A stretch of 64,000 nt of DNA, from assembly GCF_003991155.1 (NCBI RefSeq), contig NZ_CP031297.1; one strand, given 5' to 3'. The stretch comes from Escherichia coli. Lineage in GTDB: Bacteria > Pseudomonadota > Gammaproteobacteria > Enterobacterales > Enterobacteriaceae. The position numbers were made by a program. How positions within the stretch are numbered: position 1 is the stretch's first letter; every line of letters begins with the position of its first letter. This document shows positions 6,001 through 36,000 of this stretch, in pieces.

Positions 6001-9000
6001 TCAGGTGCTGTTGATTCGTTCTTCCAGCCTGTAGAGCAGTTTGTTGATCAACTCATTGACCAGCTCAAAGAGCAAGTCAAAGAAGTGATGATGGATGTCA
6101 TGAAATCAGCAGGCCAAGATGCAGCAACAGAGCAGGCGGCTGCCGCAGCATCTGAACAAGCTGCCGAAGCAATGATGGAGACTGCGACAACATGGCTTAG
6201 CACTGCCATGACGATATATACCGTCTATGTCGTTGCGATGGTGATGATCCAGATGATTTATAAGTGCGAGGAAGAAGAGTTCACTATGAACGCAAAAAGA
6301 GCGCTCAAGAATTGCACCTATGTAGGCTCTTATTGTAAATCTAAGGTGTTGGGCGCTTGTATTGAAAAAAGAGAAGCGTATTGCTGCTTCAATTCTCCGC
6401 TCTCTCGTATTATACAAGAACAGGTTCGCCCTCAATTGGGGCAGAACTTTGGAGACCCCAAAAATCCTCAGTGTGAAGGGATTCCACTAGATAAAATTGC
6501 CGAAATTGATTGGAGCAAAATTAATTTGGATGAGTGGCTTGGGATATTACAGCAGAACGGTAAATTCCCTGATCCGGCCTCAATAAATCTCGACTCGCTG
6601 ACTGGAGCAGGGAATGACTTCAATATTGACGGGACGCGGAAGAATGCTCAGGAAAGGGCGTTGGAGCGGTTGGAAGGGATTGATATTGACGCGAAGCGAA
6701 AAGAGGCGACAAACAGCATAGACCCTCAAACAGGCGCGCCAACTGGTGGTGGATAAAAAAAGGGGCCTTTCGGCCCCTTTCTCATGTAGATTGATTACGC
6801 TTCTGGGTAAACAAATAACTCTGCTTTTCCCTGATCAAGAAGGTAAGGGAAAGCAACTTTTTCGCCATTATCCAGCTCAACCGATTTTGGAGCAAGGTAG
6901 AGGTAGGCCCAAGCTGGTAGCTGTTTGCTAATAGCTGCGTAGATCGCTTGCTGAGGAGCATGGCTTGCTGCCCCATTACCGACATTCACAAAGTTGTATG
7001 CGGTCTCATGGCCTGATGTGAAGGCATACGCTGTACCTTGAACGCCAGAGACAAAATTAGGAGCTGACCCTAGGCGAGGCTCCACGATTTTCACCTTAAC
7101 GGAACACATGTCAGCTACCTTACTTTGTCCGTTCACCCACGTCGGGCAACCCCATTCATTCTTGTAGAACTGATAGGTTAGGCGACCGTCTTTGTCATAC
7201 AGAAGCGTGAAATTGGCACCCAAATCAGTCAGCGCTGACTCAATGGAAACTTTCACATGTGAAAGAAATTTGGCCTGAGCGTCTGCCGGTGAAACTGCTT
7301 CGTTAGCAGGCATCCAAGCGATCAAGCTATTGCGAGCGCCATGCTGTTTGGGGCCGATAGCCCAGTTCGCAAGGTTGACCAAGCCACCTTGCCAGTCGGT
7401 CATTCCGAGCTGAGGGGACATGTAGCCAGACAGCACGTAGGCTGCCCCAAACGTTTTGGTGTCGGTCAGACGCTCCAGCTTGTCACGCGGAACAGAAGCG
7501 TCTTGGATGCCTGTTACCAGGCCACCGGCCTCCGCGATGTTGTAAGCGCGACTGTGATTGGTTTTGTACGCTGTGGGTTCGTAACTGCTGGTGGATGCAC
7601 AGCCAGATAGAGCTGCTACAGCCAGAGCCACGGTGGTGATTAAAGCCTTTTTCATGTTGTTCTCCGTTCTTACCTGAGTTGAATCTGATTTACTTCGATA
7701 ATATCACAGCATCAAAAAATGCAACCATAAAAGACAAAAAAAAGCCCCTCGGGCGAGGGGCAAAGGTTTGGGCTGGGTTATGCTGCTTTTGTTTTCTCGG
7801 CTTCGTCTGCGATTTCCTTGTCGCCGGTTGCAGATTCCGGAGCGGCTTCGGCCACTTCACCTTCTTTGCCTTTGCTGTGGGCGGAAATGCGAGCCCGTTT
7901 CTCGATGCCGATGATTCGACCGGCCAGCTTGATGAGGCGTTGCTGCCATTGGTAAGTGGCGTCGGTGCGCTGCTTGCTGGTCAGTACGGTGTTCAGCCAG
8001 AGAGTGTCAACGATCCCCATCAGGGTATCCAGTTTGCGGATCAGGTGTGCAAACTGAGCAACCTGAGGAGAGTTGATCTCGATGGTGTATTCATTCGGGT
8101 TGGTGTAGCCGGGCATCATGTCGATGCCGTTGTCTTCCATCAGCTTGTTGAGCTGGGCGGTAGCTTTGTCCAGGTCTTCGGAGACCTTGGAAATGTGTTC
8201 CAGGATGACGGTTTCAACCTGGTCGATTTCGTCCTGCTCACCGATGATGCGAAGGATCACGTCGATGGAGAACAGGGAGTTGGAAACTCGCTCAAAGCTG
8301 CGTTCCATGACGCGCTGAGCTTGGAGGCTGTTTACTTTCAGAACTTGCTTGAAAACAGGGCGAGAGTAGTGGTTGCTGCGGTCGTTGTTTGTGTCCAGTG
8401 CTACTTGTGCTTCTGCCATTAGAGATACTCCTAAATTTGAGGTACAGATAAACGCACTGGAAAGGATAAATGCGGTCAATCTGTAACCTGACCTCTCGAA
8501 GTGCCCAAAATGGACAGTTACAGCGTTTTCTGTTTAGCAAAGGTGAGCTATATTTGAATCATCTTAGTCGCTCTGCGGCTATAGGTGAGATAGCTGGTCT
8601 CCGAAAACAAACAGCATCTAGTCTTATGCCGTATGGCATTACTTAACCCCAAGCCGGGGGCTTCTCCCGGTTTTCGGGTGTTGCCCCTGTTTTTTTTACA
8701 TAGGAGCAACACCATGCACATCATCACTTTCATTGTAGTTCTGCTTGCATCTCTGGGCGCACTGTACGTAGGCGCGAAGGCATTTGCTTTTTCCTTCATC
8801 GTTCTCGCTAAAGTGTTCCAGCGTATCGGTTTGTTCCTTTGGAACAAATTCGCAGTTCCTGCAATGCGGTCTGTACAGGCCGTCATCAAAGAACGTGCTG
8901 CCAAGGCTGAACAAGCCAAAGCAGTCGTTGAACCTGAGGTAACTCAAGTTCAAGAAGTCGCTAAACAAGAACCTGACTGGGATTATCTCGAAATCCCGAC

Positions 9001-33000: not shown

Positions 33001-36000
33001 GTAAAACTCGGAACCTTAAAGCTCGGCTTTGGCCGTGACCTTTCAATAACCCATGCGGGTACACTTCCCCGCACGGGGTAGGTGTACCCATTAACTTTGG
33101 AGTACACCTTATGAACCAAGTAGCTAAATTGGACCTCGCCCAAATCCGTCAACAAGCCATCAATGATGGTCTGCTGGTGGACCAATCTTCCATCGGTAAA
33201 CAAGCTGGTTTCCTGACCAATGTGGCAGTGACCCCGGCAATTGTCGATGGAGTATTTGGTGCAGATGGTAAGCACTCGGTAGAAGACTTCCTTTTCATGT
33301 TTTTGCAGCTTTGTGTTGCTCAAACAAAGGTCGCTTTTACCGACAACAAGAATTGGGGAAAGATTCGTCTTTATTACCCCATGCCCACTGTAGATGGCTT
33401 TTTCAAACCCACTGAGGTTGTGATTAAGTCAGATCCTGTAACCGCAGATGTCACAATCATGATGGCCTCGGAAGAGGGCGCTCATTTGTGCTTGTGATAT
33501 TCACAAAATTCGCCTCCGTTTCGGGGGCGACCTTTTTAAACCCCTCGCCGGGGAGAACTCCCCGGCTGGGGAGCCTCCTTGGCACATTCTCCCGGTGTCG
33601 GGGTTTCCTTAAAACCCTGGCGACGGGGGTTTAAGGAAGCCTCGATGCTGGGGTTCACGCTAAGGAGAAAACCTATGTCTTACTACAAAGCTGACACCGT
33701 TCGTGAAGCTGCAAACGGAAACTGGCTATTCATCCTGGCGGCCCTAGCGCCCCATCTTGAACCAGCTCTCCGTAAACCTGGTCGTCATGTTTCTTGTCCT
33801 ATCCACGGCGGGAAAGATGGCTTCCGACTGTTCAAGGATGCCCACCTGACTGGTGGCGGCGTATGCAATACATGCGGTGCCAATCATGATGGTTTTGAGC
33901 TGCTGATGTGGCTCAATAACTGGGACTTTAAACAGTGCCTGAGCGAGGTTGGTGATTATCTGGGCGTTGAGAAAGAGCAACCCCAGTATCAACAAGCCGC
34001 TGCACCGACACGAGCTCCTGTCCAGGCCAAAGCGCCTGTTCAGCAAGAGCCTATGAAGGTGAATAACAAGGTTCTCGATTCCAAGAATCGTAAAAAATCC
34101 ATTGCCGGTACTCTGATTGCCCACGGTAAAGCTCCTTATGAGCATAACGAAGACAACGAGCTCAGCTACTTTGCCTTCATCCGTGACAAGAGCGGTTTGG
34201 AACGCACCATCTGGGGCGTGGATCTTGAAAGAGCCATTGGTGAAAGTGAAGCCAAGTATGGGGATGAGATCGTCATGACAAACCTCGGGCGCGAGCCTGT
34301 AACTGTCGTCGTTGAAGTTAAGGACGAGCAGGGGAATGTTGTGAGAGAACAACCTATGCAAACGCATCGCAACACCTGGCTGGTGGAACGTCGCGGCGCT
34401 ACGGTAACGCAGTTCCGCGCTCGCTCGAACGGTGGTGTTGAGCCGGTGAGTCACCATGTTGAGTCGGCCCCTGTGGTCAACCGCAAGGTAGAAACTCCGG
34501 CACCGCAAGTACAACCTGCGGCCACACAACCGGAAGAGCAAAGCAGCGAAAATAAGCCGAAAGTTGTTCCGATGTTTCGTGAACAACCTAAGCCTTGGTT
34601 GCTTGAGCTCCAAGAAGAAATGGAGAAGAGAATGGAGCGCGAACGCGCTTACAGTGCTCGTCTCCGTGAGAAAATCGAGAAGGTATGGAACGAGTGTTTG
34701 CCGTTCTCCAGTCATGTGACTGAGCCAATGCGTCTGTACTTCAAAAACCGCGAGCTGCTGTTCAAAGTTGATGAAGTAGAAAAAACAGACTGTCTGCGGT
34801 TCAATCCGGCTATGGCCTACTACGACGAAGATGGCAATGAAGTTGGGAAATTCCCGGCTATCGTCTGCGCTATCCGAGATGTGGAAGGCAACCTGGTAAC
34901 GCTCCACCGCACCTATCTCACCCAAAACGGTAAAAAAGCCAAGGTCGGCAACGCCAAAAAGATGATGCCCATTCCTGACGGTTTGGATGTCAATGGCGCG
35001 GCCATCCGCCTCGGTGAACCGACTGAGGGTATCCTGGGTGTTGCAGAAGGGCTGGAAACAGCTCTGTCAGCTTATCGAGTCACTCAAATCCCGGTTTGGT
35101 CAACGGTCAATGCCACCCTAATGGAGTCCTTCGAGGTTCCAGAAGGTGTTCACACCGTACTGATCTGGGCTGACAAAGATAAGTCTGTGACTGGGGAGAA
35201 GTCAGCGAACGTGCTGAAAGCCAAGCTGGAGAAGCGCGGCATTCGTGTGTACGTCCTGCTGCCTAAGCTCCCGATCCCGCCCAGAGCGAAAGGGATTGAC
35301 TGGAACGATGTCCTGATGAGTCAGGGAAGCCTCGGTTTCCCGAATGCTCGCTACCTGCGCGATTTCATTGCGAGAAGGAGAGCTGAGTATGGCCGTCATT
35401 GATGTCTCGAAGGTTGATACAACGCCTGGTAACGACGCGGTGTGCCCCTTCTCTCCCCCTGAGGGGTGGGAGGGGGACTCTGCGGCCTACGTTGAGCTTA
35501 TGCGGTCTCGGTATCGTCATCTGATGCACGGCCAGAGAATGATGGTGACAGCCTCCTTCGCAAGAAGGGAGCCTATCCAAGTTACTGGCCCGTTTGCTGA
35601 TGAAGCGACGAAGATCATTAACTCAATGAAGATGAACAAGGCGAAGCCAACAGCTTTGTCTGCCTAAAACTTTAACCCTGAGGGGGTGTTCATGCCCTCT
35701 CAGGCATGATTCGCCTCCTCTTCAACTATGGAGGTAATCATGAAAAAGTTTTTGCGTATTAAGACGTGGTTTGTGCGTCTTTTCTCTCCTGACAAGAAGA
35801 CTCTGGGAGCTATCGGTGAAGACCTGCGTAAGGTCGCCGTAACAGCCATCGGTGTCGGTATTGTAGGGGTCGTCTCAGAAAACGGAATCTATGGTCACTC
35901 CCGTTTTTGCAACACCGATTTTGACGACAAGTTGGCTTGCTTGAATCTATCCGGCGTCTGAATGGGATTTTATTCCCGCGCCTCGATGAGTTCCGCGCCT

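Follow-up and report, generated by a model that had tools for sequence, protein, structure and literature searches.

A multi-copy family of intercistronic RNA leaders, with predicted alternative folds at the next ribosome-binding site, in IncC plasmids and their relatives

Introduction

IncC plasmids and the SXT/R391 elements are leading carriers of multidrug resistance. The DNA analysed here (the window) is a stretch of 64,000 nucleotides (nt) from Escherichia coli (contig NZ_CP031297.1 of assembly GCF_003991155.1), which represents an IncC plasmid backbone and is 100% identical to many IncC records over positions 8600–30000. Between traN and the resistance island it holds a block of about 35 co-oriented genes, about 27 kb in length. 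The block includes genes for an AAA ATPase, DUF3150 and VWA proteins, methyltransferases, a PAPS-reductase-like protein and a toprim primase, together with ssb, bet, exo, yfaE and yfbR, and it encodes functions for survival on entry into new hosts, namely anti-restriction, ssb–bet–exo repair of CRISPR cuts, methyltransferases and primase. Nearly every gene of this block has a leader of about 70 nt 5' of its start codon. Why does one block carry a separate leader for almost each of its genes, and what may such a leader do to the translation of the gene that follows?

The original prediction, made from the sequence of the window, had placed such leaders before at least 27 start codons, with a longer one before a further start, and had proposed that they toggle access to the ribosome-binding site (RBS). 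Our analysis reveals that the leaders are a real, conserved, multi-copy RNA leader family, for which two mutually exclusive folds are predicted.

Results

A leader before nearly every gene of the block

All 28 leaders are present at the positions first assigned to them, on the + strand, each ending at a start codon, and the covariance model R3 (below) recovers 28 of 28. They measure 63–83 nt from the (T)AACCC motif to three bases after the start codon, and the starts to which they are linked are annotated coding-sequence starts or belong to short open reading frames (ORFs) left unannotated. The block genes without a leader (10722, 21217, 30594, 30877 and 35389) each overlap or abut the preceding gene. 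Hairpins also stand before the Shine–Dalgarno (SD) sequences of 25300, 25805 and 17798 (25247–25277, 25750–25784 and 17753–17782, respectively); these are unmatched by the leader models, two of them resembling fold B (below) without the AACCC motif and one being terminator-like.

Column identity among the 28 copies averages 49%, and only C4, C5, two G residues and the ATG are invariant. The motif and the runs of G and C are conserved in sequence, the rest is variable, and the stem sequences vary from copy to copy. The motif had been said often to begin at the upstream stop codon, which overstated the case, as the stop codon of the annotated upstream gene is the TAA or TAG of the motif in only 4–5 copies.

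Anatomy of the two folds

The leader is built from three strands: X (G-run, loop 1 and C-run), Y (G-run, middle segment and C-run) and Z (the SD sequence through the AUG). Fold A has a clamp (P0), formed by the C-run of AACCC and a G-run 3' of hairpin 1; hairpin 1 itself (P1) has a 6-bp G/C stem and a loop of 4–8 nt; and P2 joins the middle segment and a following CC or CCUCC to GGAG and the spacer, as far as the AUG or into it, so that the RBS is closed. Fold B is seen when the leader is folded without the SD strand: X, comprising the 5' arm, loop 1 and the 3' arm, pairs continuously with Y to give one nested hairpin of 12–16 bp (–17 to –28 kcal/mol), leaving the SD and AUG of Z single-stranded. 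The G-runs and C-runs each have two alternative partners, and X is similar to Z.

When the whole leader is folded, A is the minimum-free-energy (MFE) structure for 22 of the 28 copies (–25 to –40 kcal/mol); as the predicted ground state, it is favoured over B by 4–14 kcal/mol in most copies; both folds are predicted in 20–22 of the 28. The loop of the RBS hairpin is rich in A, U and C, and the number of RBS base pairs varies between genes. The remaining six copies (11691, 22007, 23614, 29996, 32858 and 33675), which we term class II, have fold B as the ground state, and their SD is held only through a short generic CUCC:GGAG hairpin. The textbook copy is the leader before gene 33111 (33047..33113; 41.6 bits with R3), in which folds A and B are predicted at –32.9 and –25.2 kcal/mol, with loop 1 UACACUUC, middle segment UAGGUGUA and SD strand GUACACCU.

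The individual pairings first proposed, namely 20518-28 with 20542-52, 12273-80 with 12311-18, 33081-87 with 33102-08 and loop 29943-50 with 29964-71, are all found. The broader proposal that the SD-to-AUG strand pairs with a copy-specific upstream segment is borne out by partner specificity and covariation (below), except that about six copies have only the generic CUCC:GGAG pairing. Loop 1 is complementary to the same middle segment, as had been noticed; some nucleotides take part in both pairings, which are thereby mutually exclusive, and both covary. The complementarity had been drawn as an H-type pseudoknot. It is better described as the nested hairpin of fold B, which also uses both stem arms, because a loop fully paired within an intact 6-bp hairpin would leave no connecting loops, although this comparison was made with ViennaRNA, which scores nested folds only.

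The pairings exceed chance and covary

A scanner set to find the C-run motif together with a hairpin at or below –20 kcal/mol and an SD with start codon gave 25 matches on the + strand of 8.6–36 kb, one on the – strand and three in the rest of the window, as compared with 0–3 (mean 0.75) in eight dinucleotide shuffles. The specificity of pairing was assessed by an alignment-free partner-swap test, in which fixed windows were used without folding and partners were exchanged among copies in 20000 permutations. Cognate X:Y duplexes had an energy of –24.9 against –17.8 ± 0.65 for swapped partners (z = –11), and cognate Y:Z duplexes –15.6 against –11.0 ± 0.49 (z = –9.4), with 0 of the 20000 permutations as good in either case. 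The Y:Z specificity recurs in related loci (z about –3.3 to –6.2 in L002, L003, L005–L012, L016 and L017), for which leaders had been chosen without use of Y:Z. In addition, 24 of 28 copies fold better in the sense strand than in the reverse complement (p = 1e-4), and G-U accounts for 14% of fold B pairs, which together argue for function in RNA, or at least in the sense strand.

MAFFT alignments of the paralogues or of exo orthologues placed the stems out of register, and RNAalifold found almost nothing in them; for this reason, the analysis relies on the partner-swap statistics and on covariance models from regularised seeds. The seeds of R1 (fold A) and R2 (fold B) are artificial, with real stems but loops and junctions trimmed or padded to fixed lengths, whereas R3 was built from unedited sequences only, the 136 R1 matches. 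With filters off, R1 recovers 22 of the 28 leaders at E<0.002, all on the + strand, and only five of these (9743, 13368, 20552, 31169 and 33111) were sources of its edited seed, with orthologue seeds for 9129 and 19028. Over 594 kb (the window and 26 related loci), R1 gives 136 matches at E<=0.01, all on the gene strand and none on the opposite one, many of which end exactly at the start codon of Exo as located independently by tblastn. R3 recovers all 28 leaders at E<=0.021, five of them outside its training set. Outside 8.6–36 kb of the window it has no + strand match at E<0.8, and one – strand match (56443–56495, E=0.6).

In alignments fitted to each structure, both folds show compensatory variation. 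For fold A, 93.6% of cells are paired as compared with 69.4% after shuffling, double-change cells number 451 against 145, and the score is 0.537 against 0.153, with slid controls at <=0.10. For fold B, the corresponding values are 96.1% against 64.9%, 95 against 26, and 0.844 against 0.235, with slid controls at <=0.13. All six pairs of P2a vary on both sides, one column pair reading GC 30, UA 29, CG 23, GU 9, AU 6 and UG 2. By comparison, the AACCC:GGG clamp P0 is invariant C:G, and covariation is thus uninformative about it, neither for nor against. These comparisons of sequences support pairing of the SD and start codon with an upstream strand under compensatory variation, and suggest that two mutually exclusive folds are each under selection.

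Leaders in other mobile elements

The family is limited to the traN-to-resistance-island block of IncC. In the complete IncC plasmid pVCR94deltaX (120.6 kb), all 22 model matches fall within 65.2–92.8 kb, and its rep, par and tra regions have no leader matches. The same architecture, with other sequences, is found in an IncA plasmid (L034), pVPH2/pAQU-like plasmids (L002) and a Pseudoalteromonas plasmid (L003), and leaders are also present in an SXT/R391-type integrative and conjugative element (L035). Most of 29 loci found through Exo carry a leader before exo; L014 and L018 lack one, and L017 has no ATG at the predicted start. The hosts of these Exo loci comprise Shewanella, Edwardsiella, Alcanivorax, Marinobacterium, Vibrio, Paraglaciecola, Comamonas, Halomonas, Chromatiales and an alphaproteobacterial metagenome-assembled genome. 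The family is thus shared by IncC, IncA, pAQU-like and SXT/R391-type elements and by distant Gammaproteobacteria.

Between IncC and IncA, 28 of 53 leader substitutions fall at positions unpaired in both folds, and there is one double change of C-G to U-A; the close relatives (IncC type 2, IncA and Shewanella) have too few substitutions for strong covariation among orthologues. In the Chromatiales loci of high G+C content (L019–L032), UUCCCCC or AUCCCCC stands in place of the 5' motif UAACCC with the fold retained. This drift points to the C-run, not the TAA, as the conserved part.

Predicted energetics and a proposed switch

The predicted cost of opening the SD-to-AUG segment averages 8.5 kcal/mol in the window, which would mean strong repression at equilibrium, and falls to 4.9 when the C-run is masked. 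Among 121 leaders the values are 8.0 and 4.5 kcal/mol, and the number of copies at <=3 kcal/mol rises from 6 to 51. Direct-path barriers, which are heuristic upper bounds, come to 13.7 kcal/mol for B to A, 22.3 for A to B and 19.8 for D1 to B, the last being the passage from hairpin 1 plus clamp to B on a nascent transcript of X and Y. Such high predicted barriers suggest that the folds are kinetically isolated, with the state set during synthesis or by active unwinding and not at equilibrium.

A kinetically bistable translational switch is our best reading of function. From the predicted folds we infer a cis-acting two-state gate on the RBS, which we hold with fair confidence; that every leader would be such a cis-acting mRNA element, gating the RBS of the next gene through two exclusive folds, seems to us about evenly balanced between right and wrong. 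That ribosomes terminating just upstream would release the AACCC clamp is put forward with much less confidence than the two-state gate.

The proposed sequence of events is as follows. Under ordinary 5'-to-3' folding, hairpin 1 and the AACCC clamp would form first and the leader would close into fold A. A ribosome ending the upstream ORF next to or on AACCC would prevent pairing of both the clamp and the 5' arm of hairpin 1, and the freed C-run and G-run could then nucleate fold B as the rest of the leader emerges, or after unwinding, leaving the downstream RBS open. The outcome would be translational coupling relayed by structure over gaps of 60–90 nt, gene by gene; copies in 5' untranslated regions (5'UTRs) or far from an upstream stop would need another trigger or stay mostly closed. 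In its fullest form, this is a ribosome-driven RNA ratchet, in which termination flips each leader into a long-lived open fold and licenses the next cistron, a tentative scheme that we think more probably wrong than right. A stop triplet stands directly 5' of the C-run in about 54 of the 121 leaders, as compared with 2–11 at any other position, and a long upstream ORF is present for 76 leaders, with its stop within 17 nt in 38 of them.

Several observations weigh against the switch and its coupling to upstream translation. The other 38 of the 76 long upstream ORFs stop 18–45 nt away, beyond the ribosome footprint, 45 of the 121 leaders have no long upstream ORF, and short intergenic gaps may simply reflect genome compaction. 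When a full footprint of 16 nt from the stop is masked, the predicted equilibrium does not shift to B, and with 12 nt masked it does so in only about 8 of 28 copies. The barriers are upper bounds, as stated. Six copies lack the three-strand logic; the covariation counts rest on alignments fitted to each structure, the first models having come from edited seeds; and the clamp, which never varies, is without covariation support. We reject the terminating ribosome as a simple thermodynamic trigger, since the RBS hairpin is still the predicted optimum under the 16-nt mask, and any coupling model must therefore be kinetic. A conserved upstream ORF (uORF) through the R element (below) is likewise rejected as a general trigger, because R copies do not conserve its frame and three of them lack it.

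Alternative explanations

The alternative that survives best, which we nevertheless regard as unlikely, is that the switch is set by a trans factor, either a plasmid or host protein or a small RNA (sRNA) with GGGUU, acting on single-stranded (U)AACCC or on hairpin 1 and flipping all leaders together into regulon-wide translational control. It would account for the conservation in sequence of the motif and the G- and C-runs while the rest varies, for the retention of the motif in 5'UTR leaders and in those far from any stop, and for the confinement of the family to one co-regulated block; moreover, masking the C-run alone cuts the opening cost by 3.5 kcal/mol on average. However, the motif drifts to UUCCCCC or AUCCCCC in Chromatiales with the fold kept, no candidate sRNA was identified, and Pfam shows no RNA-binding domain in 20 hypothetical proteins of the block, most of which have no Pfam match of any kind. 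An RNA-binding protein encoded in the block is accordingly rejected for want of Pfam evidence, and the term riboregulator in the original prediction goes too far in implying a trans-acting trigger, for which no evidence was found.

We consider it improbable that the leaders are constitutive dampers or insulators, in which fold A would hold each RBS at a set level independent of neighbouring sequence, and fold B, not a regulated state, would arise as an intermediate of folding or protect against misfolding. Fold A is indeed the predicted ground state by 4–14 kcal/mol in most copies, the number of RBS base pairs differs from gene to gene, and the A/U/C-rich loop of the RBS hairpin could act as a standby site. 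By contrast, the covarying, copy-specific pairing of loop 1 with the middle segment would be unneeded in a pure damper, and the predicted open fraction of 1e-10 to 1e-4 would nearly silence ssb, bet, exo and vcrx089-090, which are active genes (PMC7498323).

Somewhat less probable again is a role in RNA processing or stability, with the hairpins as cleavage sites for RNase III or RNase E, or as 5' or 3' stabilisers, making gene-sized mRNAs. In phage T7, intercistronic RNase III sites cut polycistronic transcripts. The one element per intercistronic gap in very long operons, the stable G+C-rich hairpins and the depletion of sigma-70-like promoters in the region would suit such a role, and vcrx087-094 is a single transcript (PMC7498323). 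But the stems of 6–14 bp with bulges are short for RNase III, and processing leaves the copy-specific SD-to-AUG pairing and the fixed register with start codons unexplained; as weak further evidence, a genome-wide 5' rapid amplification of cDNA ends (5'-RACE) table has only AcaCD start sites (PMC4207636).

A DNA-level role, with single-strand hairpins serving priming, protection or recombination in transfer or replication, or with microhomologies used in Bet/Exo repair and gene shuffling, is very improbable in our estimate. The block encodes ssb, bet, exo and primase, and Bet/Exo repair takes place between rptI repeats that include some leaders, 7 identical nt sufficing (Roy et al., PMC7498323); because all block genes are co-oriented, strand bias cannot separate mRNA from one DNA strand. 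Against this, the SD and the start codon always lie within the pairing, which stops at the AUG, G-U (G-T) pairs are common, most copies are too dissimilar for annealing (mean column identity 49%), and a crossover within X, Y or Z would yield a hybrid leader without cognate pairing.

Two further classes are rejected. An RNA thermometer of the ROSE or fourU type is rejected in silico, as warming brings the predicted opening cost only from 12.6 kcal/mol (15 °C) to 8.5 (37 °C), 7.6 (42 °C) and 6.2 (50 °C), and no more than one of the 28 copies reaches 3 kcal/mol or less at 42 °C. An intrinsic terminator or attenuator is at odds with the presence of a T-run after hairpin B only in the copies before 8714 (T8) and 9129 (T5) and the absence of enrichment in a terminator scan (24 against 20.5 ± 5.4). 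In these two copies, at 8655–8697 (hairpin B at 8655–8689) and 9075–9112, hairpin B followed by T8 and T5, respectively, is terminator-like and may also attenuate transcription.

R elements, upstream ORFs and promoters

A repeat family that we call R lies on the + strand 30–55 nt 5' of eight leaders, at 8589–8599, 9633–9643, 14468–14478, 18300–18310, 22714–22724, about 26495, 29637–29647 and 32753–32763, and forms a component of the rptI repeats (Roy et al. 2020). The R consensus reads GATTTTGTTCTC-TTCG-GAGAGC...GCG(A/G)TAGCTGG(T/C)CGCCAAAAACAAACAGCAAATTAACGTTAATTT, and the core GRTAGCTGGYC has seven exact + strand matches as compared with 0.09 expected. R contains a UUCG-tetraloop hairpin with a G-U pair, a 16-nt perfect palindrome, and GCGGTAGC/GCGATAGC, which resembles the ops element. 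The latter is GGCGGTAGCGTG and recruits RfaH. R may be an antitermination or 5'UTR element; in a search of Rfam at E<=5 over 8–36.5 kb, it had no match, JUMPstart included. Terminator-like hairpins (GGGGGAAACCCC then CTTT) precede most R elements.

Three ORFs that run through R (9579–9680, 8470–8646 and 32549–32800) end exactly on the TAG or TAA of the leader motif, in the copies before 9743, 8714 and 32858, respectively. The first is a 33-codon uORF, MVNTISKQILFSSESEKCDSWSPKTNSKLTLIY, ending on the TAG of TAGCCC. R copies differ in the frame of such ORFs, which three of them lack.

Sigma-70-like promoters are depleted over 8000–27900 (3 against 13.7 ± 3.1 in shuffles), which fits long operons from few AcaCD promoters. 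AcaCD boxes (TTGCACCCnAAAAGGGCA) map to about 18146–18174 (vcrx098) and about 29547–29575 (vcrx114) from Table S3 of Carraro et al. 2014 (PMC4207636). According to the same table, mapped through L004, the AcaCD-dependent transcription start site of vcrx114 lies about 53 nt 5' of the 29721 leader, which places this leader wholly inside the 5'UTR.

The leaders along the block

In the following, the coordinates of each leader refer to the + strand and the scores to R3 unless another model is named. The first leader, before 8714 (8644..8716; 34.2 bits; folds A –33.4 and B –23.3 kcal/mol), has an R element upstream at 8589, and the ORF 8470–8646 stops on its motif TAA. The next (9066..9131; 45.0 bits) precedes the ORF 9129–9221 of 30 aa, and a later one (32798..32860; 30.8 bits; class II), with the motif TAATCCC and an R element upstream, precedes the ORF 32858–33004 of 48 aa. 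Both ORFs are unannotated in the PLSDB record, and both are probably real genes given a full leader with a strong model score before each.

Among the leaders of annotated genes, that of the AAA ATPase gene 9743 (9678..9745; 36.4 bits) and that of the DUF3150 gene 14578 (14513..14580; 43.6 bits) are of rptI type with an R element upstream, and the copy before 23234 (23166..23236; 41.9 bits) is nearly identical to these two in X and Y. The ssb leader (before 11691; 11628..11693; 39.7 bits) belongs to class II: the upstream stop is the motif TAA, the B hairpin is the ground state and the SD lies in the CUCC:GGAG hairpin. In the bet leader (before 12316; 12239..12318; 36.2 bits), CAUGGUGU pairs with ACACCAUG, and in the exo leader (before 13368; 13303..13370; 51.5 bits) the upstream stop is again the motif TAA. 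The VWA gene 15940 has the weakest model match (15869..15942; 17.1 bits, E=0.021), with the motif AAACCG and a B hairpin of –26.8 kcal/mol. The leader before 18398 (18329..18400; 20.6 bits) has a degenerate motif (CAACCT); it lies within a 5'UTR, 3' of an R element and of an AcaCD promoter, the box of which was mapped from Table S3 (PMC4207636).

Further along are the leaders of gene 19028 (18964..19030; 40.4 bits); of the methylase-like gene 19602 (19539..19604; 27.6 bits, outside the training set), with a B hairpin of –27.4 kcal/mol; of yfaE at 20552 (20484..20554; 41.7 bits), with an 11-bp anti-RBS stem and the upstream stop TAG within the motif; and of gene 20838 (20774..20840; 34.0 bits), where the upstream stop is the motif TAA. 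The class II leader before 22007 (21947..22009; 33.6 bits) is the one in which IncA has the compensatory change of C-G to U-A. Before 22267 (22208..22269; 39.1 bits), the cost of opening the RBS drops from 10.9 to 0.7 kcal/mol once the C-run is masked. The leader before 22812 (22749..22814; 38.7 bits) has an R element upstream and that before 26592 (26530..26594; 27.1 bits) an R-like element, while the cytosine methyltransferase gene 23614 has a class II leader (23547..23616; 24.3 bits) that scores 25.1 bits with R2, the fold B model. The PAPS-reductase-like gene 27066 follows a leader (27007..27068) scoring 45.8 bits, and 42.8 bits with R1.

Toward the resistance island, the leader before 29721 (29664..29723) scores 35.1 bits and that before 31169 (31107..31171) 38.1 bits, and the best match of all, at 52.1 bits, precedes 31801 (31736..31803). 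The class II leader of yfbR at 29996 (29930..29998; 28.6 bits) has loop 1 and the middle segment paired at 8 of 8 positions. The leader of the toprim/primase gene 33675 (33538..33677; 20.1 bits over 143 nt) is long and atypical and belongs to class II, its SD being mostly free in the MFE structure. In the last leader, before 35740 (35673..35742; 32.0 bits), the SD-to-AUG segment is only 1% unpaired when the leader is intact.

Discussion

If the leaders gate translation, they would add a post-transcriptional layer over the whole programme of the block, one invisible to the transcription-centred studies of AcaCD and SetCD. Should the ribosome-driven ratchet prove true, translation would spread domino-like through the 27-kb establishment and anti-defence block of IncC, IncA, pAQU-like and SXT/R391 elements, transcripts not translated from the 5' end would remain locked shut, and the leaders would provide a modular, evolvable coupling over long intercistronic gaps as a new RNA family of major resistance vectors. 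The family offers more than 100 natural variants of one three-strand switch, in which the stems differ and the logic is constant; these variants suit tests of how kinetic bistability and translational coupling are encoded and could lend themselves to synthetic operons as a portable design. The leaders serve, too, as markers of true start codons and flag unannotated short genes such as 9129–9221 and 32858–33004.

The expectation that no described RNA family would match was borne out. Rfam 15, searched at the gathering score, gave only two AAC_AAD_leader matches in the window, at 42–47 kb, and none to a leader there or in a further 144 kb of relatives; even at E<=5 over 8–36.5 kb, no leader was matched. 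The two AAC_AAD_leader/attI matches (42158–42227 and 47042–47113) mark class 1 integron cassettes of the resistance island and are unrelated to the leaders. The papers on the AcaCD/SetCD regulon, on hde/Bet-Exo (PMC7498323) and on oriT do not mention hairpins or leaders in the block, and targeted literature text searches returned no description of them; a device of this kind, repeated gene by gene, is thus without a description that we could find in the IncC/SXT literature or in Rfam. A published feature that overlaps the family is rptI (Roy et al. 2020, PMC7498323), whose long copies include the R element and the leaders before 9743, 14578 and 32858; it is treated there only as a DNA substrate for Bet/Exo annealing, and neither the wider leader family nor its RNA folds are mentioned.

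Comparison with characterised systems reveals likenesses to several of them. In repY–repZ (repB–repA of IncI-alpha/IncB) and tap–repA (R1), as proposed for the leaders, the RBS lies in a stem that is opened by a ribosome terminating on a short upstream ORF, and an upstream hairpin loop pairs with a segment near the RBS. These are single-copy controls in which the loop-to-RBS pseudoknot acts as activator and an antisense RNA as input, whereas loop 1 of the leaders finds its partner in the anti-RBS strand, within a nested hairpin; the leaders have no known antisense RNA and number 28 in one replicon. In the MS2 coat–replicase and E. coli rpmI–rplT pairs, upstream translation melts structure over the downstream RBS. 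There the occluding strand lies inside the upstream coding region and is melted directly by the ribosome, while the leader device is wholly intercistronic and would need a three-strand relay. The MS2 maturation-gene (A-protein) 5'UTR and the metastable hairpins of hok share with the predicted behaviour of the leaders two folds, a large barrier and a folding order that decides translation competence; these are unique sequences with known triggers (time after synthesis and 3' processing), in contrast to a multi-copy family. Translational riboswitch platforms and classical attenuators (1:2/2:3) similarly oppose anti-SD and anti-anti-SD pairing on three strands, but the leaders have no conserved ligand-binding aptamer, only the G/C runs and AACCC being conserved.

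At the level of multi-copy elements, repetitive extragenic palindromic (REP) sequences and bacterial interspersed mosaic elements (BIMEs) are likewise G+C-rich intergenic hairpins near stop codons. REP copies share sequence, while the leaders share architecture only and keep a fixed register with the downstream start; membership of the REP/BIME class is rejected, as column identity averages only 49% and the stems differ from copy to copy. Closest in population structure is the integron attC site, a structure-conserved, sequence-variable imperfect hairpin present once per gene in the gaps of co-oriented genes. The attC site acts as bottom-strand single-stranded DNA with IntI, has RYYYAAC and GTTRRRY core sites and is not complementary to the next RBS; effects of attC hairpins in mRNA on how the following cassette is translated have been reported. 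By comparison, leader pairing targets the SD and AUG. With the attC cores read by eye only, many leaders have YTAAC at the 5' end and no consistent GTTRRRY at the 3' end, and the class 1 integron of the window, at 42–47 kb, lies apart from them. The leader family appears to belong to none of the repY–repZ/tap–repA, MS2/rpmI–rplT, trapped-leader, riboswitch-platform and attC families and, no earlier description having been found, is a candidate RBS-sequestering switch of new form.

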